The translations under genes were made by a program, and so were the position numbers. Of a stretch of DNA of 64,000 bases, positions 1-41,489 are shown piece by piece. Source of the stretch: a bacterium (GTDB lineage: Bacteria; Zhuqueibacterota; Zhuqueibacteria; Residuimicrobiales; Krinioviventaceae); contig OY843751.1 in NCBI GenBank assembly GCA_963693055.1, forward strand, positions 1,344,001 through 1,408,000, read 5' to 3'. Each line of letters starts with the position of its first letter. Position 1 is the stretch's first letter. The notes below the pieces were generated by a model. The model did no database searches and was not told where the DNA came from. It worked only from the letters and a program-made list of their open reading frames with translations.

Positions 1-2333
1 CCGGATTTTCACCCATCGGTAATAGTAGCACCGAATTTACCGGCTCTTATGACGGCCAGTTATATAGCATTTCCGGATTGACCATCAACCGGTCATCAAC
101 CAGTGATGTCGGATTGTTTGGCCGTACCAGCGGCGCCATTCTGGAAAATATTGCAGTGATCAATGCGGATATTACCGGCAATGACGCTGTGGGTTGTCTG
201 GTGGGTAACAATAGGGCCAGCTCCACAGTAAGCAAAAGTTATTCTACCGGTACTGTCAGCGGTAACATAAATGTTGGGGGTATTACGGGTTTGAACTATA
301 ATGCCAGCCTGGCGCAGTGTTATGTTACGGCCGGTGTTAGCGGCGCCTCGGATGTGGGCGGACTGGTGGGCTCTAATTATATTTCCGCCACAACACAAAA
401 ATGTTATGCCCGGGGTGACGTTACCGGCACATCCAACATTGGCGGACTTGCTGGCTCGAATGCAGGTGGAACGGTCAGCAGATGTTATGCAACCGGTGAG
501 GTCTCGGGCTCATCCAATACCGGCGGACTGGTGGGTAATAACAATAATACAGTTACTGATAGCTTTTACGATGAATGGACCTCTGGGTGTAGCGATACCG
601 GTAAGGGAGAACCTGTAAATACAGTATTTATGAAAATCCACTTGACGTTTACTGATGCCAATTGGGACTTTGCCACAGAGACCGCCAACGGCAGCAACGA
701 TGTCTGGGACATGGATTACAACCAGGCAATAAACAGCGGTTACCCCTACCTGAGCTGGCAGGATGGCAGTAGTGTATCACTCAACTGGACAGCAGCAGCG
801 CCTGCTGACGGTGAGGGCACCAGCGGCGATCCCTACCAGATTGCCAATCTGGAAAATCTTGCCTGGTTGTCACTGTATGCCAATCACTGGGACAAATATT
901 ATATACAAACCGCAAACATTGATGCCTCGGCAACCAGTACCTGGAATGGAGGTGTAGGATTTTCACCCATCGGTAACAATTCTGTATGGTTTACCGGCAA
1001 TTACGACGGTCAATCTTACACTATCACCGGCCTGACCATCGATAGGTCAGGTACCAATAATATAGGTCTGTTTGGTTATACCAACGATGCCGTCATAAAA
1101 AATCTTGGGGTCTTGAGTGTTAATATTACCGGCAACAATAATGTGGGCAGTTTGATAGGCAATTTAAACGCCGGTACTGTAAAAAAGTGTTACTCTAACG
1201 GTAGTGTTTCCGGCAATGCCAAGGTTGGTGGTCTGGCAGGGTCCAACAACAGTGGGCTGCTTGGTCAGTGTTTTGCCAATACTGGTGTTTCGGGCGCTAC
1301 CGATATAGGTGGACTGGTGGGATACAACAACTATTCCTCTGATGTTAATAACTGTTATGCCAAAGGCAGTGTTTCCGGCACATCAAATGTGGGCGGTCTT
1401 GCCGGTTCAAATGTCTCATCAGCCATCCTGAATAAAAGTTATGCCAAAGGCAGTGTCTCCGGTTCTTCTGCCTCGGGTGGTCTGGTGGGTTTTAATGCTG
1501 GCGATGTGATTTTTTGCTTTTACGATTTAGAAACCACAGGGTGTAACGATACCGGCAAAGGCATACCCAAGTCTACAACAGATATGAAAATCCTGTCCAC
1601 ATTTACGGATGCGGACTGGGATTTTGAAGCAGAAACGGCTAACGGCAACAATGATTTTTGGGACCTGGATTGCAGTTGTTCCATAAACAATGGCTATCCC
1701 TTTCTCTCATGGTTAAATGGAGAAGATGTGGCCCTGCCCGTGGAATTGTACAGCTTTACAGCTGTTTGTGATAATGGCATAGTGATACTTGAATGGCAAA
1801 CCGCCAGTGAACGCGACAACCTGGGTTTTATACTTGAGCGACGAGATGAAAACAGCAACTGGCAGGAAATCAATTCTTACAAGATGTGTCAGACTCTGCA
1901 AGGGCAGGGAACAACTCCCTCGGAAACGGAATATTCCTACATTGATGATACGATTTCTCCCGGAAATACCTATACCTACCGTCTTTTGGATGTAAATACC
2001 AGTGGTGCGATAAATGTACTCGCATCTATATTGGTTAAAGTGGAATCTATTCCAACGACAACGCAATTATACCCTGCGTATCCGAATCCGTTCAATCCAT
2101 CTACAACCATCAGGTATGATCTGGCAAAAGACGGATATGTGAGTATTGCTGTATATGATGTGCTGGGCAGGCAGGTCAGGTCACTGTTTAACGGTGAGCA
2201 GGCTGCGGGGAGTTTTGATCTGCAATGGAACGGTCTCGATGATCTGGGTTGCCAGGTTTCGAGCGGTATTTATCTCGTTCGTTTTCAGACTGGTAATTTT
2301 ACCCGGACCCAAAAGGTTATGTTTGTAAAATAG
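1..2333 (+). CDS. Secreted GLUG-repeat (beta-helix) protein with LPVEL Ig-like domain and T9SS/FlgD-type C-terminal domain; 5'-truncated by the window
   Basis: Repeated VGGLVGxN/GxVSG GLUG motifs and a YPNPFNPSTTI C-terminus. The frame is open from the window start (GFSPIGN motif at about 3-23), so the real start lies upstream of base 1. Confidence 0.85.
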   Translation, partial: GFSPIGNSSTEFTGSYDGQLYSISGLTINRSSTSDVGLFGRTSGAILENIAVINADITGNDAVGCLVGNNRASSTVSKSYSTGTVSGNINVGGITGLNYNASLAQCYVTAGVSGASDVGGLVGSNYISATTQKCYARGDVTGTSNIGGLAGSNAGGTVSRCYATGEVSGSSNTGGLVGNNNNTVTDSFYDEWTSGCSDTGKGEPVNTVFMKIHLTFTDANWDFATETANGSNDVWDMDYNQAINSGYPYLSWQDGSSVSLNWTAAAPADGEGTSGDPYQIANLENLAWLSLYANHWDKYYIQTANIDASATSTWNGGVGFSPIGNNSVWFTGNYDGQSYTITGLTIDRSGTNNIGLFGYTNDAVIKNLGVLSVNITGNNNVGSLIGNLNAGTVKKCYSNGSVSGNAKVGGLAGSNNSGLLGQCFANTGVSGATDIGGLVGYNNYSSDVNNCYAKGSVSGTSNVGGLAGSNVSSAILNKSYAKGSVSGSSASGGLVGFNAGDVIFCFYDLETTGCNDTGKGIPKSTTDMKILSTFTDADWDFEAETANGNNDFWDLDCSCSINNGYPFLSWLNGEDVALPVELYSFTAVCDNGIVILEWQTASERDNLGFILERRDENSNWQEINSYKMCQTLQGQGTTPSETEYSYIDDTISPGNTYTYRLLDVNTSGAINVLASILVKVESIPTTTQLYPAYPNPFNPSTTIRYDLAKDGYVSIAVYDVLGRQVRSLFNGEQAAGSFDLQWNGLDDLGCQVSSGIYLVRFQTGNFTRTQKVMFVK

Positions 2334-2394
2334 TATCATATGACCAGAGGAGAAAAAGAAATTTATAAAACCCCCTAAAAATACAACGGAGCGT

Positions 2395-2421
2395 CAGATC
2401 ATTAATAAATTTGGTGATCTG
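2395..2421 (-). terminator. Hairpin downstream of the element A genes
   Basis: CAGATCATTAA-taaat-TTGGTGATCTG imperfect stem about 40 bp after the 2459 stop. Confidence 0.4.
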
Positions 2422-2458
2422 TCATTCTGAAAGTAATAAAAGGGAAATATAAAAGCAA

Positions 2459-3283
2459 CTAATTGTTCTTTGAAAGATTCAACTGACTCCTTTGATTTTT
2501 AATTTTATCAGGCAAAAGATCAACATATTGTTGTATGACACGTTTGGAAAGTCTTGCCAGCTGGCTGATTTGATCAAGGTTTTTAATGTCATGCTTCCAA
2601 AGTAATTCAACACGATGGTAATCTTTGATATACCTGTCAACCGCTTCGTTGCTGTGTTTGGTTTTCAAAGCGATTTCGGGAGTGAGATATCCCTCAAGAT
2701 ACAGAGTGATAATTTCGCGTTTATGAGTAATAGCGCCGGAAAGATCATGGATGTTGCCACGCGTTGGTAAGAGATGCCCTTCTTTTTGGATTTCATTTAC
2801 ATATTTACTGACAACGGCATCACAGACACCGAGTAACATAGCCAGGTCAAGTTGAGTAAGCAGAGCACCTTGATCAAAAGCTTCATCAACCCAACGTTTG
2901 AGGCGTCTTTTCCTTAAAGTTTTGGAATCAAAACCATGCGCGATATGAGAAGTATCCTGATCAGTAATGAAAGAGAGGACAACGGGTTTCATTCGGGTAG
3001 CGGCAATACTTTTTCCGCGTTTGGGGTATTCATCGACAGGAACAGCCATCCAGACGAGTTGCCCATAGTGAATATGGTGCAAGTCATCATCAATAGAGGA
3101 GACAAGGAAATAGTCATCAATGATTTTAAGGATATCATCAATGATGGCATTGGCAGTGATGGCTCCTTTGTCATAGCCATAGCTATTCAAAAAGTTGTAC
3201 AGTAGTAACTGCTTGAGATCTTTATCTTTAAGTCGTCTCATTTTTTTGAGTTGAATTTGTTCTTTAGTCAAAGGTTTACTCAT
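2459..3283 (-). CDS. DUF1670-family protein, B-type subunit (element A)
   Basis: GALLTQLDLAMLL HTH, then TRG..HD, THK..II.LY..G and HS...RY motifs. The ATG at 3283 has a GGAGG RBS (3292-3296); the frame stays open back to 3337. Confidence 0.75.
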   Translation of the reverse strand: MSKPLTKEQIQLKKMRRLKDKDLKQLLLYNFLNSYGYDKGAITANAIIDDILKIIDDYFLVSSIDDDLHHIHYGQLVWMAVPVDEYPKRGKSIAATRMKPVVLSFITDQDTSHIAHGFDSKTLRKRRLKRWVDEAFDQGALLTQLDLAMLLGVCDAVVSKYVNEIQKEGHLLPTRGNIHDLSGAITHKREIITLYLEGYLTPEIALKTKHSNEAVDRYIKDYHRVELLWKHDIKNLDQISQLARLSKRVIQQYVDLLPDKIKNQRSQLNLSKNN

Positions 3284-4115
3284 TTTCTTTGCCTCCTGAT
3301 AGATGTTGAGGAATGGATTTTTTTTTCGCGTCGCCACCAGGTTCCGCAGGAGATAACAGATCGTTTAATCGCGTATTGTTTTGTTGAAGATAGGTTTGGT
3401 AGAGTTGGATATACTCGCGCACCAGGCGGTCGGATTTCTTTGCAATGAGTCGAATCTGGTTCGGAGAGAAATTTTCCTTGTATAAAAGGGCGATCTGCAT
3501 AAAGTCAGCGAGGTAACGTTTGATGCTGGTTTCAGAATGATTGGTTTTTTGTTCTATTTCTGAAAAGGTATAACCTTTAAGATACAGATCAATAATGATG
3601 GTTTTATGAGACAGTCCGGGACCCATGTCATGTTTCATACCTCGTGTCATGATAAACATACCGTGATGACGGAGATGATAAATGTCACGTTTAACAGTGG
3701 CCGGACTGGTGGTTAAAAGCATTGCCAGGTCTTCATAGCTGAGTAAAGCACCCTGATCATAGGCTTGTCGAGTCAGACGGGCGATCCGGTGTCGTCTAAG
3801 TCCGGCAAGGCCATAATTAGCCAGGGCTTGCAGATCTGTATTAAAGTCAATTAGTTTGAGACGGACCGTAAGCTTTCGGGTTAATCTGATATGTTTGCCG
3901 GCTGGTTCTTCAGCGGCAACAGCTTCATAAGCGACTTCACCTCCTGATAATGAAATGTTGGAATGTTCCTGAAAGTATTGGTCAAATTGTTGATAGTAAG
4001 CTTCGGCAATAATAGGAGTCAAATTGAAATCCTGAGACAGTTTTTGGACAATAGCGTTTTTAGCTGTCTTGGATTCGAGTCTTTTTAAACCATAATTATT
4101 TTTAACATCTGCCAT
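3276..4115 (-). CDS. DUF1670-family protein, A-type subunit (element A)
   Basis: GALLSYEDLAMLLTTSPATVKRDI HTH, TRGMKHDMG, SHK and HSETSIKRY motifs; AAGGAG RBS. Confidence 0.75.
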   Translation of the reverse strand: MADVKNNYGLKRLESKTAKNAIVQKLSQDFNLTPIIAEAYYQQFDQYFQEHSNISLSGGEVAYEAVAAEEPAGKHIRLTRKLTVRLKLIDFNTDLQALANYGLAGLRRHRIARLTRQAYDQGALLSYEDLAMLLTTSPATVKRDIYHLRHHGMFIMTRGMKHDMGPGLSHKTIIIDLYLKGYTFSEIEQKTNHSETSIKRYLADFMQIALLYKENFSPNQIRLIAKKSDRLVREYIQLYQTYLQQNNTRLNDLLSPAEPGGDAKKKSIPQHLSGGKENE

Positions 4116-4215
4116 AAGAATCTCCTTATTTCTGTTTTTATTAAAACAATGATTCCTATGGTCATATGCACTAAACTTTAAATAATTATATTTTGATAAA
4201 GGTAAGGGGCAAAGC

Positions 4216-4246
4216 GTGCCAGGGATACTTATTGCATCACTGGCAC
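4216..4246. terminator. Hairpin in the 90-bp spacer between the two elements; probably the original terminator of the convergent flanking genes
   Basis: GTGCCAG.GAT...ATC.CTGGCAC stem followed by a T-rich tract. Confidence 0.55.
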
Positions 4247-4311
4247 TTGTTTTATTTACGTTTAGGAAATATTTCCGGTAGGTTGTTTTTAAGATTAGAA
4301 CATTTATTCAT

Positions 4312-4362
4312 TTTTTCAGCTAACGAAAGGAGCTCGTAGGGCGACTGGAGTTAGCTGAAAAA
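4312..4362 (-). terminator. 13-bp stem-loop inside element B, downstream of its genes
   Basis: TTTTTCAGCTAAC (4312-4324) pairs with GTTAGCTGAAAAA (4350-4362); 25-nt loop. Confidence 0.5.
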
Positions 4363-4399
4363 CAATGACAACCTAACCTATTAATTCCTTTTCAAATTT

Positions 4400-5215
4400 T
4401 CAAGTTTTCTTTTGTATTAAATCTGAATGATAATGATAAACCAGATCACGATATTGTAATATTGTACTCCGTCCTAATCCGGTTATTCTTACCATTTCCA
4501 TTAAATTAAAACCTTTTTCCAATAATGATTTTACGTTCTTGTAACTCTTTAAATACCGACTCGTTGATTCAATTGTGTGATTTGTAATCCGGGCGATATC
4601 CGGTTCGGGATATCCCTGCTCGTACAAATCTATAATTGCGGCTTTATGCGTCGGCTTACTGCCCTGATCCAGCATCATTCCTTTAGTCGGCAATATATCA
4701 TCATGCGTTTCATGATAAATTGTCATATACCGACCAATAGTGTTTAATGAGCGATTCAACAATACACTGAGTTCTGCACCTGTCAACCAGCCGCCCTGTT
4801 CTGCCGCACTCTTGCATAACCGCGCCATTACTTTAATATCCCGTTCTGTTTGTTTTTCATAATTAGCACTGCCATCTTTTGGGGGATAAGAATAATGGCT
4901 TTTGATACGATTGTCAATATCCGCATCTGTTACCAACGGTAGCACAACTGTCTGAACCTCATAATCTTCCGCTTTTGTGCCATAACTTGGCTTTCGGTTT
5001 GTCGCTTTGGTTGTCCGCCAGATAATCTGACCAAAACTTTTCTTTTCCAGCTCTGGATAAAATTCATTTTGCAATGCGACAATATCTTCTGCAATCATCC
5101 GGATGACTTTGTGGCTTCCCAGCATTTTATAATTTTCTTCCAGTAATCGAATAATCGCATTTTGAAAGCTACGCTTAGCTATTGATTCATAACGATTTAA
5201 AGGCTTAGTCTTCAT
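4400..5215 (-). CDS. DUF1670-family protein, B-type subunit (element B)
   Basis: GGWLTGAELSVLL HTH, TKG..LDQG, THK..IIDLYEQG and HTIESTSRY motifs; AAGGAGG RBS. Confidence 0.75.
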   Translation of the reverse strand: MKTKPLNRYESIAKRSFQNAIIRLLEENYKMLGSHKVIRMIAEDIVALQNEFYPELEKKSFGQIIWRTTKATNRKPSYGTKAEDYEVQTVVLPLVTDADIDNRIKSHYSYPPKDGSANYEKQTERDIKVMARLCKSAAEQGGWLTGAELSVLLNRSLNTIGRYMTIYHETHDDILPTKGMMLDQGSKPTHKAAIIDLYEQGYPEPDIARITNHTIESTSRYLKSYKNVKSLLEKGFNLMEMVRITGLGRSTILQYRDLVYHYHSDLIQKKT

Positions 5216-6032
5216 CGATCCCCTCCTTGGTTTGTTTTTTTTTCGAGGGGTATAACACCTTTAATTGCTCCAATAACTCTACATAGATCGGCGGCCATTT
5301 GTCACCCTGTTTATGATGCTCAAAAATATCCAGGTACTCACGGGTCAAACGCTCACTTTGGCCTAATAACCGACTGATCTCTTTGATATCCTGCATACCA
5401 TGATTCAGTAATAACAACAGCCTGCCAAAGCTGCACACATATCGTTTTATTGAAAACGCGCTATGACGACTTTTACGAATAATTGCATCGTATGTGTCTC
5501 CCTGCAAATACAGTTCAATAATGTGGCTTTTGTGTGACAAGCTCCGACCGATGTCATGGTCTGTTCCGCGCGTGTGAATAAAGTTGCCATCAGTCTGCAA
5601 AGACTTTATATCCTGGCGTACAGTGCGGCTCGTAACCTGGAGGATCCGGGCCAAATCCTCTTGTGTCAAAGAACCTTCCTGATCCCAGGCTTCTTCGGTC
5701 AATCGTAAGACCTTTAACTGGCGCAGTGCCTTGGGACCGCTTTCTTTTAATACATTTAAATCTTCTACACCGGCATCCAGTGTTAACTCTACTTCTTTCA
5801 ATTCCTGCTCACCCAGGGGCTTGCCATGTTTTGCCTTGGTGGATGCGCAGATATATTTTATTTTACCAACTGTCTGGGGAACCTCGCCAAATAAACACTG
5901 CTTGGCTAAATCCAATATCCCTTTACTTTCTGCCGGTGATAATTCAAATTCTTTTCGTAAAGAATTGATGAATACTTGCTCGGGTGTTTTTTCTAATATC
6001 CTGTCATACAAACTACTACGAGTATTGTACAT
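5205..6032 (-). CDS. DUF1670-family protein, A-type subunit (element B)
   Basis: GSLTQEDLARILQVTSRTVRQDI HTH, TRGTDHDIG, SHK and HSAFSIKRY motifs; GGAGG RBS. Confidence 0.75.
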   Translation of the reverse strand: MYNTRSSLYDRILEKTPEQVFINSLRKEFELSPAESKGILDLAKQCLFGEVPQTVGKIKYICASTKAKHGKPLGEQELKEVELTLDAGVEDLNVLKESGPKALRQLKVLRLTEEAWDQEGSLTQEDLARILQVTSRTVRQDIKSLQTDGNFIHTRGTDHDIGRSLSHKSHIIELYLQGDTYDAIIRKSRHSAFSIKRYVCSFGRLLLLLNHGMQDIKEISRLLGQSERLTREYLDIFEHHKQGDKWPPIYVELLEQLKVLYPSKKKQTKEGIDED

Positions 6033-6137
6033 TTGTCCTCCGGTAAGTTTTGAAATCTTTGTTTGACTTCCGGTTACTTCTAGTAAATACTATATGAAAT
6101 AACCGCCTTTTTTCCAAAACCTACCGGAAAATTTTCC

Positions 6138-8645
6138 TTATTTCACAAACAAAGCTTTTCTGATTTTAATACAATTTCCTGTTTCCAGTTTGTAAAAATA
6201 TATGCCGCTTGAAAGATCCTCCGCATTCATCATGTAGGTGTATACTCCCGCTCCTTTTTGTTCGTTCACAAGTTCACGAACTTTTTCCCCCAATACATTA
6301 TACAGGGTCAGTTTTACATTTGATTTGTAGGGTACAGCATAGTTGATTGTTGTTGTCGGGTTAAAGGGATTGGGATAGTTTTGCTCTAATCTAAACCGAG
6401 TGGGGATTGCCGTATCCTTCTCTCTGGAATCGATGCGAGTATAAACAGGAGGCTCTTCCGGTACCCAGTCATAGCTGAAACGAGGATTAGATGTTTTTGC
6501 AAAAATGTTTTCAAGGGTATATTCGGCAGCTTCTTCATCGGATAGTTGTCTGGATATAGGAGTTCTATATGTTGTATCCGCACCTTCACCGTAACAGTTG
6601 TATTCTGCGTATAATGCCGGTGGCACATTCCAGGCCGACCATCCCACTAGTGAAAGAGCTGCAGGCTCTTGCGTATTGATGAATACCGTGCGTGGCGCTC
6701 CCTGCCAGGGGCGACCCAGCACAAAAGTATAAATCTCTTTGCCATCAAACCCAATATTATCATTACTAATGATACAATCTTTGAATACATAACCGAATTT
6801 GGAATCTGCTTCTGTGGCTGCTGCTGTCAGGGCTCCACCGTTTCGGTTGATGTGAATTTCGCAGCTATCAAACAGCACAATATTACGTCCGAAAATAAAA
6901 TCAACCGATCCTTCAATGTAGCAGTTTTTCATATAGGTCCTGCCTGTACCCCGGCCACCCCAGGTATAGTAAGTGTCCTGATATCCGAGCAGTCTGCAGT
7001 TATAATAGCTTTGCCGGTCTCCGTTTACACGTAGAGCAACCGCCTGTTGGTCTTCAAAACTACCGTCATTCATTACAGTGTTCTGAAAAGTAATATTAAC
7101 TGCTGTAAAGTCATCCGCATCAATTGCTGTGCTGTACGAATTGGAGGTGCCGCCTGCTTTGCCAGCATAATCATCAAATGTGAGTATGGTACTGTCCGCA
7201 TTTTCACCCCGAAGCGTTACATTGAGCTTTTCTCTGTCAAGTAGCAGCTTTTCGTAATATACTCCATTTTTGATATAAATATAATAATTACCGGTATATT
7301 TGTCCGGAATGTTATCAAACGCTTGCTGAACAGTAGTATAATCTCCATTGCCCGAATGGTCAACCACTTTATAGACATCCGGTTGGGGAGCCAGAGTAGT
7401 GAATTCGCGGACCGATCCATAACCGGTCCCGGCGCTATTGGTAGCATACGCACAGACGTAATAGGTTGTGGTTTCCTGCAAGGGGTAGATCAAGCTGTTA
7501 AAGGCTGACATGCCGTCACCTTCTATGTTATAACTGTCATCCAGAGTAGGGGAGCCGGTAGTATTCCACACCAGACCTTTCGCGGTAATTTCGGCGCCGC
7601 CCCAGTCAATAACACTGCCGCCGCATTCAGCGGTTTCTACACGTACATTAGAAACACCGGCAGTAAATACCCAGGGAACATCTAATGAATCAAGGGTTTT
7701 GAATGTAATTTCTTCTCCATAAGCAGTACCTGCGGCATTTATAGCATATGCTTTGGCAAAATATTCTGTACCGGGAGTTAGGCCCGTCAAATGACTTGTA
7801 AAGGCACCAGAGCCGGTTCCATCTGATGTGTGATTGTTTTCGATAGTGGGGGAACCTGTGGTATTCCAAACAACACCACGTTGAGTAATTTGTGCGCCAC
7901 CATCAGATTCAATATCACCTCCGCAGGTGCAATAAGTGGTGGAAACAAATGTAGCATCTTCCGTAGAGAGACTGGCTAAATCGTATTCAATTTCACCTTC
8001 CACAGTGCCACTAATTTTGACATCTTTTAATAAAAGATATTTACCGGTAAGGCCGCTGGTTTGATTGTGGACCCAGGGATAGACTCGCAGGTAAAAAGTT
8101 CTATCGCCAGGGATCTGTACATTTAAATTCAAGGATACTGTATGCAACGAGTCGGCACGTAATATATATCCGTTGCTTTCAAGCACAAGAGAAGCAGGGA
8201 TTTCTTCAAATGTATTGAAATCAGGATCCTGTGAGTAAAGAATACGGGCTTTAAGATAGTTGGTATAGTCCGCTCCAATTTTTAAAGAAGTGTTTTTGAT
8301 TGTGAGATCTGTGCCGCTCATTGCGGATACGGCAAACTGTGTATAAACCGATTCAATGATGTCGGTTTGATTCTCCGGCCATTGTGTGGCTCCACCCGGG
8401 GGACGGTTGTCGCTGCGTTGGCTGTTTTTGGCACCGGTGTAACTATTTACGCGCATACCAACGAATTGCTGATCCACTGCATCTATAGGGCCGGAGGTCA
8501 AAACGGTTAGTCCGCTACCTTCTGTCGCTGGATCACTCAACTCCCACAATGCATATGCAGAGGTGGTTTCATTTACCTCTTGTCCAAAACTATTACCGGT
8601 AATGAAAAGAGTACAAAATAACAAAAGAAATGTTTGTCGATTCAT
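6138..8645 (-). CDS. Secreted pectin methylesterase (CE8) with FN3-like repeats and T9SS-type CTD
   Basis: CE8 motifs GVYYEK, QAVALRV, GYQDTYY, YIEGSVDFIFG and LGRPW; signal peptide; YPNPFNPTT C-terminus. Confidence 0.9.
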   Translation of the reverse strand: MNRQTFLLLFCTLFITGNSFGQEVNETTSAYALWELSDPATEGSGLTVLTSGPIDAVDQQFVGMRVNSYTGAKNSQRSDNRPPGGATQWPENQTDIIESVYTQFAVSAMSGTDLTIKNTSLKIGADYTNYLKARILYSQDPDFNTFEEIPASLVLESNGYILRADSLHTVSLNLNVQIPGDRTFYLRVYPWVHNQTSGLTGKYLLLKDVKISGTVEGEIEYDLASLSTEDATFVSTTYCTCGGDIESDGGAQITQRGVVWNTTGSPTIENNHTSDGTGSGAFTSHLTGLTPGTEYFAKAYAINAAGTAYGEEITFKTLDSLDVPWVFTAGVSNVRVETAECGGSVIDWGGAEITAKGLVWNTTGSPTLDDSYNIEGDGMSAFNSLIYPLQETTTYYVCAYATNSAGTGYGSVREFTTLAPQPDVYKVVDHSGNGDYTTVQQAFDNIPDKYTGNYYIYIKNGVYYEKLLLDREKLNVTLRGENADSTILTFDDYAGKAGGTSNSYSTAIDADDFTAVNITFQNTVMNDGSFEDQQAVALRVNGDRQSYYNCRLLGYQDTYYTWGGRGTGRTYMKNCYIEGSVDFIFGRNIVLFDSCEIHINRNGGALTAAATEADSKFGYVFKDCIISNDNIGFDGKEIYTFVLGRPWQGAPRTVFINTQEPAALSLVGWSAWNVPPALYAEYNCYGEGADTTYRTPISRQLSDEEAAEYTLENIFAKTSNPRFSYDWVPEEPPVYTRIDSREKDTAIPTRFRLEQNYPNPFNPTTTINYAVPYKSNVKLTLYNVLGEKVRELVNEQKGAGVYTYMMNAEDLSSGIYFYKLETGNCIKIRKALFVK

Positions 8646-39665: not shown

Positions 39666-41489
39666 TTACTTCATCAATAGGATCTTTTGTACCTGTGATG
39701 TATTACCTGCTTGAAATCTTGTCAGGTACATTCCGCTTGGAGCTGCTGTACCGGAATTAGTTGTACCGTCCCAGGAGACAGATTGTTCTCCGGCTGTTTG
39801 CTGCCCGCTGACCAGTGTTTTGATCTTGCGACCCAGAACGTCGTAAACAGCCAATGTTACATGGCTGTCTTTTGCCAGATTATAATTCAGTGTTGTAGTG
39901 GGATTGAATGGATTGGGATACGCCGCAAACAGTTGCGTGCTGGTTGGTGTTCTAGTTATTTCAACAGTTGTCGTTGATAGAACATTCACCTGACCACTGG
40001 TACTGACTTCTGACAAGCGATAGGAATATTGGTTGTCAGGTAAAACAGAGGTATCGTTATAGCTGTAATGTGTAGATGATTGTTTGGCGCCTTGTCCTGT
40101 TAATTGCTCGTTTTGCAAATAAGAAGCAATCTGCTGCCATTGTGTGTTTTTGGATTTGCGCTCGATGATAAATCCCAGGTTGTCAATTTCGCTGGCTGTG
40201 GTCCATTCCAGGTGAATTGTGTTGGCTTTGTATGATGCTGTAAAGGAGACCAGTTCCACGGGTAATGCATCGTCACCGACTTTGTACTCATATGTACCCA
40301 TGTCGATGGTGCCCGCCGCTCCTGTGGTTTTATCCAGTTTTCGGTCGTAGCCGTTACCGCGGATATCATAACTTTCAGTGCAATAGCTGTCGTTACCGGT
40401 ATCGGCACAGGGAGAAATACCGGAAATACTGTAGGGATGATCTGCATTGTTGGATACACCAACAAATAGTGGATTGGTAGTGATGCAATTATTGGTGGCC
40501 GTTAGCGTGCCGCCATTATTATAAATGTCACCTGCATCGTTTCCATAGCAGCTATAATTTAAAATGGGCGCTCCTGTGTCTATATAGATTTCATTACCAT
40601 TGGTAGTACTTGAATTACCCCAAATGATACAGTTATATAATTCAGGATCAGAATTGTTCGAGTATATTCCTCCTCCATTGTCCGCGGAATTACCAGTAAT
40701 GGTTACATTTGTCATTTGCATGGCTGATGATAACAAACATATACTGCCACCGTCTCCATCACATGTGTTATCACTGATCAATCCATTGATGAGAATGGGG
40801 GCGCCGGATGTATTATAAATTGCACCACCGGATACTGTTGCATAATTGCCAGTGAATGAGCAGTTGGTCATGCTTAAACCTGATCTTGTGTTAAGTATGG
40901 CACCACCGTATTTCGCTTCATTGTTTTTAAAAGTAACATTTACAAGCGTTGGTGTGCAGGTATTATTATACATTCCACCACCATAAACGTGCTGTGGTTG
41001 CTCTGAGTCAACATAATATGCCATGCCATCACTGATGGTTACACCATCAAGTACAGCTGTATTATCCAGGCTGATACTATTATGATAGAATACATGGTAA
41101 CAATGATCACCGCCCAGGTCGCCACTGAGAATGGTCTCATTGTCTTGTCCCGGGGCATAATTGGTGCGTTCGCTAACAACAGATTCTGTCCCTGCGAATC
41201 CACCATAGACAGTTACACCATTGATCAATCTGAAATGGTTATAAGTCGATCTGTTTCCACCAGCAAGGCCATAGTCGTAGGAGGGGACGTAGGTGCCTTT
41301 GGCGATCCAGATTTCATCGGGAGATGCCGCAACGTTCAAGGCTGATTGTAATGAGGTGTAGGCGTGGGTCCAACTGCTACCATCATCGTTTCCAGATGCA
41401 TTGATATCAACATAGATGGTGGCGCTCCATAGGGGTAGAACAATAGCAAGAGAAACAAGAACCATGAGTATAGTCTTTTTCATGATCAA
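39666..41489 (-). CDS. Secreted right-handed beta-helix protein with Ig + T9SS-type CTD
   Basis: IYVD..DGSSW..A..LQ.AL..IWIAKGTY, GGGMYN/GGAI repeats, IDMGTYEY and YPNPFNP. Confidence 0.85.
   Translation of the reverse strand: MIMKKTILMVLVSLAIVLPLWSATIYVDINASGNDDGSSWTHAYTSLQSALNVAASPDEIWIAKGTYVPSYDYGLAGGNRSTYNHFRLINGVTVYGGFAGTESVVSERTNYAPGQDNETILSGDLGGDHCYHVFYHNSISLDNTAVLDGVTISDGMAYYVDSEQPQHVYGGGMYNNTCTPTLVNVTFKNNEAKYGGAILNTRSGLSMTNCSFTGNYATVSGGAIYNTSGAPILINGLISDNTCDGDGGSICLLSSAMQMTNVTITGNSADNGGGIYSNNSDPELYNCIIWGNSSTTNGNEIYIDTGAPILNYSCYGNDAGDIYNNGGTLTATNNCITTNPLFVGVSNNADHPYSISGISPCADTGNDSYCTESYDIRGNGYDRKLDKTTGAAGTIDMGTYEYKVGDDALPVELVSFTASYKANTIHLEWTTASEIDNLGFIIERKSKNTQWQQIASYLQNEQLTGQGAKQSSTHYSYNDTSVLPDNQYSYRLSEVSTSGQVNVLSTTTVEITRTPTSTQLFAAYPNPFNPTTTLNYNLAKDSHVTLAVYDVLGRKIKTLVSGQQTAGEQSVSWDGTTNSGTAAPSGMYLTRFQAGNTSQVQKILLMK

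Follow-up and report, generated by a model that had tools for sequence, protein, structure and literature searches.

Tn7 inserts downstream of the glmS stop codon with a 5-bp duplication and needs TnsABC together with TnsD, and the integrative elements and prophages that occupy the 3' ends of tRNA and tmRNA genes rely on tyrosine or serine integrases and on identity over tens of bases. Insertion sequences of the IS1111 group are described as having subterminal inverted repeats, extensions of 7 or 6 bp plus 3 bp, and no duplication (PMC11187229). Here we describe two small elements, A and B, in a window of 64,000 nucleotides (nt; the whole stretch analyzed, positions 1,344,001 to 1,408,000 of contig OY843751.1, assembly GCA_963693055.1) from a bacterium of the phylum Zhuqueibacterota. 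They lie between two convergent genes whose products both end in ...FVK, and each is inserted behind the AA that opens the final lysine codon of its target gene, one codon before the stop; the element provides the third codon base and a new stop (TAG for A, TAA for B), and the host protein is unchanged. We consider it probable (roughly 0.7) that A and B are distant members of an undescribed family of small elements, containing two DUF1670 genes only, which enter in fixed orientation after AA, bring their own third base and stop, and are likely placed by site-specific exchange at a two-base core by, or with, the DUF1670 pair. This reading builds on established features, namely the copy numbers, the junctions, the empty sites, the ATA(G/A) that travels with the element, the unchanged host protein and the single orientation per family.

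The complete 6.5-Mb genome holds 26 DUF1670 matches, which form 13 pairs. Element A is present in six copies that are 100% identical over 1,838 nt, and element B in seven that are 92.6–100% identical (six at 99.7% or more, one at 92.6%). In three runs from one sample, assembly unitigs break exactly at 2328-4181 (A) and 4256-6143 (B), with ~6 times the depth of the flanks. Nine insertion sites, accounting for 10 of the 13 copies, are empty in a genome of the same genus (G001; sites A4, B4 and B7 were left out of this comparison). Both elements are mobile, and the machinery that moved them is likely undescribed. In window coordinates, the locus is laid out as follows.

3..2333, plus strand: target gene 1 (5' end outside the window), with GLUG repeats and a type IX secretion system (T9SS) C-terminal sorting domain (Pfam Glug, FlgD_ig and Por_Secre_tail), ending ...MFVK; its third Lys-codon base and TAG stop (2330-2333) are element A sequence
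2328..2329, plus strand: AA core where A adjoins gene 1: Lys-codon bases one and two, and the sole bases common to both junctions
2330..4179, plus strand: element A, 1,850 nt without the AA, six copies, flanks common to the copies
2459..3283, minus strand: A open reading frame (ORF) 2, DUF1670, 274 amino acids (aa) from the ATG at 3283 (PF07900, E 2.1e-62), overlapping the ORF1 stop by 8 nt
3276..4115, minus strand: A ORF1, DUF1670, 279 aa (PF07900, E 9.8e-59)
4180..4185, plus strand: original Lys codon and stop of gene 1 (AAATAA) at the far end of A, equal to the G001 empty site AAATAA TTATAT
4216..4246, no strand assigned: native hairpin between the convergent genes, part of neither element and conserved in the G001 empty locus
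4252..4257, minus strand: original Lys codon and stop of gene 2 (AAATAA) at the far end of B
4258..6141, minus strand: element B, 1,884 nt without the AA, seven copies, flanks common to the copies
4400..5215, minus strand: B ORF2, DUF1670, 271 aa (PF07900, E 4.9e-48)
5205..6032, minus strand: B ORF1, DUF1670, 275 aa (PF07900, E 6.6e-47), co-directional with target gene 2
6142..6143, minus strand: AA core at the gene-side junction of B
6138..8645, minus strand: target gene 2, a pectinesterase with a T9SS C-terminal sorting domain (Pfam Pectinesterase, 1.1e-56; Por_Secre_tail, 3.3e-10), ending ...LFVK; its third Lys-codon base and TAA stop (6141-6138) are element B sequence

The junctions of all copies follow one rule. 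The far end reads ...CACTAAACTTT and then AA in all six copies of A, and ...CCTAAACGT and then AA in all seven copies of B; what stays constant is AAATAG...CTAAACTTTAA in A and AAATAAGG...CCTAAACGTAA in B. The empty locus of G001 is a single stretch, which reads ATGTTTGTT AAATAA TTATATG at gene 1 (whose G001 ortholog, 80% identical, has AAATAA as its end) and, at gene 2 on the opposite strand, GTTTGTG AAATAA AAAAATGCC (beginning AAAAATG). These sites overturn the empty sites reconstructed in the first-pass annotation, in which AACTTT and ACGT had been taken as target: both belong to the element, since they recur in all copies and the G001 empty sites differ from them. The same annotation had placed insertion at the TAA, with a stop kept; it was right that TAG (A) or TAA (B) is left as the host stop, and needs amending in that insertion falls after the AA of the Lys codon, with the third base and the stop both brought by the element. 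In three copies the far-side version deviates from AAATA (AAGTA twice, AAAAA once), and the informative G001 empty sites, AAGTAG for B6 and AAAAAC for A6, equal these far-side versions, the gene side reading AAATA(A/G); the ATA beside the gene, together with the following G (in A) or A (in B), is therefore carried by the element. A 5-bp target duplication (AAATA) was considered and dropped after the B6 and A6 empty sites and the cross-phylum junction tallies. The element stop replaces any original one, be it TAA, TAG or TGA, after a codon AAA or AAG, and the original AAR plus stop is displaced to the far end of the element. Where the last codon encodes arginine, the target's own two bases stand on both sides (CGATA/CGATA once, AGATA/AGATA twice).

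The tips of the two elements are built alike. On the gene side A begins with ATA and an inverted repeat starting at 2333, and its far tip consists of the inverted repeat up to 4171 and the extension TAAACTTT (repeats at 2337-2351/4154-4168); B has ATA and the inverted repeat 6138-6118 on the gene side and the inverted repeat 4284-4264 with the extension AAACGT at the far tip (repeats at 4264-4284/6118-6138). Within each inverted repeat lies a further palindrome (GGAAATATTTCC and GGAAAATTTTCC for B, TCATATGA for A; window 4266-4277, 6125-6136 and 2336-2343), which would fit binding by protein dimers. All four ORFs match DUF1670 with 160-211 bits against a gathering cut-off of 25. A ORF2 is 34% identical to A ORF1, and between the elements the identity is 34% for ORF1 and 29% for ORF2; A and B are thus old relatives, neither being a copy of the other. 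The native spacer between them measures about 70 nt and includes the hairpin at 4216..4246, which is likely the shared terminator of both genes. At the B tip (window 6085-6152, minus strand), the final codons of gene 2 together with its stop, UGUGAAAUAA, pair with the internal UUAUUUCAUA around the palindromic repeat (-14.4 kcal/mol, z -2.95), and the TTATTT found there is conserved in most B-type loci; judged from its predicted fold, this hairpin could serve as a replacement terminator or as a lock against read-through. A promoter and terminator scan yielded nothing usable.

The target is a gene family rather than a locus. Using our own hidden Markov model (HMM) for ORFs with a terminal T9SS tail, we counted 251 tail genes in the genome (the PF18962 listing gives at least 150), 163 ending in Lys and 137 in AAATAR. 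The Lys-stop of such a gene adjoins 11 of the 13 copies, and 10 of these 11 are among the PF18962 matches listed; of the remaining two, A2 is stacked behind B2 at a tail gene and A6 is intergenic and off-target. The central proposal of the first-pass annotation, that two divergent DUF1670-pair elements share a sequence-specific, gene-sparing target at the conserved 3' ends of T9SS-tail genes, is thereby borne out, as it is by 53 of 71 relatives of A and by relatives of B in metagenomes, which show the same junction. All 13 tail-gene ends that carry an element or a remnant (11 full elements, 2 B remnants) end in Lys, compared with 163/251 tail genes overall. AAATA occurs at 40,757 sites in the genome and AAATAR at ~3,197 intergenic ones, and 628 genes have AAATAR as their end; set against these counts, the placement of 11 of 13 copies at tail genes is not explained by chance or selection alone. 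We also built a 27-nt matrix from unoccupied tail-gene ends and scored it over the genome. At the median score of the occupied sites it finds 80 sites, 74 of which are tail-gene stops, and at the lowest occupied score 486 sites with 205 tail-gene stops; the former figure indicates that DNA reading alone could give the specificity. The window holds 11 further, unoccupied tail-gene ends (15350, 18656, 22790, 24379, 28577, 31957, 34567, 37457, 39666, 44146 and 59184), 10 of them Lys plus stop and one AGA TAA, all potential landing sites. B-type end remnants occur at G000:C1:1730453, 5975654, 333442 and 5684744: the B gene-side tip persists at two tail-gene Lys-stops, as 17 nt at one and as a diverged piece of about 40 nt at the other, a truncated tail ORF is joined to 25 nt of a B far tip, and one 12-nt stretch is a possible trace.

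The same junction is found in other lineages. Our A-type set comprises 80 loci from Calditrichota, Ignavibacteria, Bacteroidetes, Cloacimonadota and Poribacteria; both ends were located in 71, and in 53 of these 71 the element adjoins a tail gene. A far junction was obtained for 52 loci. Of these, 51 have AAATAG as the hexamer beside the gene, and the far-side hexamers vary: AAGTAA (17), AAATAG (11), AAATAA (11), AAGTGA (7), AAGTAG (3) or others (3); the first 2 nt of the two junctions agree in 51/52 and the first 5 nt in only 23/52. The 7-nt far extension in these loci is AAACTAT (36), AAACTTT (13), GAACTAT (2) or AAACTTA (1), with ATA as the near extension. B-type elements have a 6-nt AAACGT-like far extension and, again, ATA near the gene; among metagenome loci that have both ends and whose junction pair is listed, AA is common to the two junctions in 13/13, the gene side is AAATAA in 12/13, and the far-side stops are TAA, TAG or TGA. 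Orientation is invariant within each family: A-type genes are always convergent with the target gene (53/53) and B-type genes always co-directional with it (all junctions), which confirms the opposite coding orientations already noted in the window. Despite this opposition, the long extension is distal to the gene and ATA proximal to it in both types. The cross-phylum target logo shows A at -15 and -14, ATG at -12 to -10, and T at -8 and -5. The gene content of DUF1670-pair elements is without exception this pair alone, and their hosts span six phyla or groups including this phylum; one junction rule in two families with ~30% protein identity and in several phyla points to an old, conserved trait. 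A lower-scoring DUF1670-pair subfamily of the same phylum (L051-L055, L057, L059 and L062; n = 8) has no tail-gene neighbor and no DNA similarity between its loci.

Some loci carry more than one element or an unusual target. A gene-B-A stack lies outside the window at G000:C1:507851-511575, where the G001 site is empty (TTAATG AAATAG TTTGTAAAG); gene-B-A stacks are also present in two metagenome contigs and a gene-B-A-B stack in L168 (stacks: L165, L168, L175), and each junction repeats AAATAR. Behind the far end of a B-type element (L172:1850-1957), a 17-nt fused near/far repeat is followed again by TAATAGT AAGTGA and looks like a second copy that was almost wholly deleted. Eight A-type copies from Poribacteria (L132, L135, L136, L138, L139, L140, L142 and L145) lie in the loop of a repeated hairpin, with GAAACCGAGTTTTG..G on one side and AAAAAAC TCGGTTTC on the other, and the off-target copy A6 likewise landed before AAAAAC.

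We propose that the target read is the conserved DNA for the last ~eight residues of the tail (AAR ATG nTn nTn nTn followed by AAR TAR) and that its reader would be the DUF1670 pair with its multiple helix-turn-helix (HTH) modules. The reaction may proceed via joined ends of the IS1111 type, in which the far repeat, 6-7 nt, AA, 3 nt and the near repeat would follow one another. The joined ends predicted for the two families share one form, repeat-(T)AAAC(T/G)T(T)-AA-ATA(G/A)-repeat, and run the same way with respect to the target; because A and B agree in this, exchange between joined ends and target appears favored. Going further, the DUF1670 pair itself might represent a new class of transposase or recombinase, without DDE, DEDD, HUH, serine or tyrosine domain, that reads ~25 bp of the conserved gene end with at least six HTH modules and exchanges a 2-base core; this extension is tentative, and we would put it somewhat short of even odds.

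To characterize the proteins, we searched sequence and structure collections and modeled A ORF1. At E values of 0.001 or lower, DUF1670 counts 1,230 representatives. Some single proteins contain three DUF1670 repeats (P0004, P0011, P0014 and P0019; ~930-950 aa) or two (P0025 and others; ~500-545 aa) and no other Pfam domain; by their sequence these are natural fusions of the pair, and their existence makes it likely that the two proteins act together. The AlphaFold model of A ORF1 (mean confidence, pLDDT, 89) consists of three helices, a beta hairpin with a conserved EPAGKP tip, a long helix and winged-helix/HTH modules, and the full-length model has no Foldseek match at E 0.001 or better. For IS630/Tc1-mariner neither a DDE family in Pfam nor an RNase H-like fold was found, and the dinucleotide is AA (or AG/CG), not TA; for IS200/IS605 no Y1 HUH transposase Pfam family matches the four ORFs, and the elements do have inverted repeats. 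For serine recombinases Pfam gives only a sub-threshold HTH_7 and no resolvase-type catalytic domain, and no such fold is listed, which does not exclude one; for tyrosine recombinases (catalytic residues R-K-H-R-H/W-Y) there is no Pfam match and no integrase among the listed fold matches. The fold searches as a whole list no catalytic fold, which does not prove that none exists. The conserved residues R158, H170, H193 and Y201 sit on modeled HTH helices, and the motif HSxxSIxRY, once considered as a tyrosine-recombinase motif, was dropped since it lies on an HTH recognition helix in the model; we take it to resemble a resolvase-type HTH pattern. Between two HTH modules of A ORF1 (residues 156-171, window about 3603-3650, minus strand) there is a loop motif, TRGxxHDxGxxxSHK, that is nearly invariant (R158, G159, G165, H170) among 86 family members and degenerate in B ORF2 (TKGMMLDQG). 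The plasmid collection has no match to A ORF1, the ESM Atlas returns only HTH clusters with the element protein (0.76-0.81), and of four clusters, one bears the source name 'predicted transcriptional regulator'. In the literature we found nothing on DUF1670/PF07900, nor on insertion sequences that target T9SS gene stop codons.

Several observations weigh against site-specific exchange by the DUF1670 pair. Two junction pairs break the AA rule, L049 (CAATA/AAATA) and L048 = L067 (AAATA/TGATA). Off-target copies exist, namely A6 here, the eight in the repeated hairpin of one Poribacteria genome, and L125. The stacks fit insertion adjoining the gene as well as at the regenerated far-end site, and are compatible with either order of insertion and with either half of the target being read. 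The assembled contigs of the runs show neither a circle junction nor an excision product. On the protein side, Pfam and NCBIfam find DUF1670 and HTH families alone in the element ORFs, with no catalytic domain, and a PDB profile search gives weak HTH matches only. With the full-length A ORF1 model, VIA-align reaches a best Z of 6.6, to winged-helix/HTH regulators only; the N-terminal 125 aa modeled alone (pLDDT 83) give weak IHF/HU-like rows (Foldseek E 0.19-1; Z 4.7 with a root-mean-square deviation of 13.8), and going by these models the pair may only bind and bend DNA. As for the joined ends themselves, no A-A form occurs in the genome or in the collected loci, and the sole match to a B-B pattern (L171) is the far end of B followed by an unlike flank. 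The sequencing runs (X6-X8) contain the locus as assembled contigs, and three joints in these contigs, with sides of 21-25 letters, lie among paralogous tails and have no bearing on an empty site or a circle.

Two alternatives survive best, though we judge each improbable. The first is ordinary cut-and-paste or copy-paste transposition by an unrecognized transposase, with a 2-bp AA duplication, no joined ends and ATA(G/A) as terminal element sequence. It would account for the 2-nt repeat that flanks nearly all copies and is target-derived (AG or CG) at arginine codons, and the bipartite HTH layout of DUF1670 presumably recalls the DNA-binding halves of IS630/Tc1 transposases; however, the fixed orientation per family, the asymmetric extensions and the two unlike dinucleotide pairs fit core exchange better, and neither a DDE domain nor an RNase H-like fold was found. 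The second is that A and B are non-autonomous, the DUF1670 pair binding and bending ends and target while a host-encoded enzyme does the chemistry, in keeping with the lack of a recognized catalytic fold, the weak IHF/HU-like hints at the N terminus and HTH modules only elsewhere. Against this, the two-gene content is constant in hosts from Calditrichota, Ignavibacteria, Bacteroidetes, Cloacimonadota, Poribacteria and the present phylum, all of which would have to supply one and the same helper, and the repeats of A and B are shared by no other element of the genome.

RNA-guided targeting as in IS1111/IS110, with a seekRNA or bridge RNA encoded in the 125-136-nt non-coding stretch downstream of ORF2, is considerably less probable. 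The ends are IS1111-like, and a non-coding region follows the genes as it does in IS1111; in addition, an internal TTATTT(CA) of B-type elements could pair with the junction AAATAA, and in L056, whose junction is CGATAA, the internal sequence is TTATCG. This complement in the B leader spans 8 nt, with L056 as the single covarying case. Against this reading, TTATTT is kept by elements with AGATAA junctions, and no Rfam family matches. Moreover, neither the elements nor the complete genome encode a DEDD transposase, while 6 of 14 controls in that search gave hits, and the bases left of the core vary per site (TTATTA, TTTGTA, TTGTTA, TTTTTG and others), which a fixed guide could not pair with. 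It is more doubtful still that the elements have no preference for secretion genes and use any AAATA, selection retaining the harmless insertions: few bases are strictly shared (AA, usually then ATAR) and off-target copies exist, yet the ~3,197 intergenic AAATAR sites and 628 gene ends would be equally harmless, so that the 137 tail genes predict ~3.6% against the 11/13 observed; tail genes make up 163 of 829 Lys-stop genes, yet 11/11 gene-end copies lie at tail genes, and the same bias holds in other phyla. Weakest is the first-pass idea that both elements recognize, by way of a symmetric protein dimer, the imperfect palindrome GTTTGT-N3-ATAAAC, which both window junctions can be read to contain, with AAAC near the far end in A and B, and which the empty sites refute: GTTTGTR represents the Phe-Val codons of these two genes and stands upstream of only 3/13 copies, AAAC belongs to the elements' own 6-7-base far extension (AAAC(TTT/GT) in 13/13 copies whatever the flank, absent from the nine G001 empty sites), and the proposed site GTTTRTNAAATAAAC has 0 matches in the genome.

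If the DUF1670 pair is itself such a new recombinase, A and B would exemplify a protein-guided, scar-free 'last-codon' insertion, spread over at least six bacterial phyla, with the T9SS tail as a multi-copy safe harbor. Landing inside the last codon and rebuilding it would allow multiplication without cost to the host, the landing pads being a gene family of ~250 members per genome. Since no known cutting enzyme was recognized in them, A and B offer a direct lead to possibly new DNA-insertion chemistry, for which ends, core and target are defined as test substrates. For annotation, the stop codons and terminators of T9SS cargo genes beside DUF1670 pairs should be read as element-derived.

Among known systems, Tn7 directed by TnsD to attTn7 resembles A and B in that a conserved 3' coding end is recognized, in one orientation, and the host gene stays intact; A and B differ in inserting inside the last codon with a built-in codon end and stop, in having ~250 paralogous targets per genome, and in carrying two genes only. 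The elements at tRNA and tmRNA 3' ends likewise rebuild the gene end and displace the original end to the far junction, whereas in A and B no integrase domain was found and 2 bases only are common to the junctions. With IS630/Tc1-mariner they share small size, inverted repeats, a dinucleotide at both junctions and HTH-HTH modules, and they depart from it in the lack of a DDE domain, in AA instead of TA, in the fixed orientation and in the long, sequence-specific target. From IS1111 they differ in having two paralogous HTH proteins in place of a DEDD transposase (PF01548 plus PF02371; none in the four ORFs, 0 in the genome) and in target flanks too variable for a fixed RNA guide. The likeness to IS1111 (IS110 family, e.g., ISEc11; PMC11187229) is nonetheless close: the repeats are subterminal with asymmetric extensions, here also 7/6 plus 3 when the shared AA is left uncounted, there is no true target duplication (only AA is common), insertion takes one orientation at a specific site, a non-coding region lies downstream, and some relatives of A sit in repeated hairpins.

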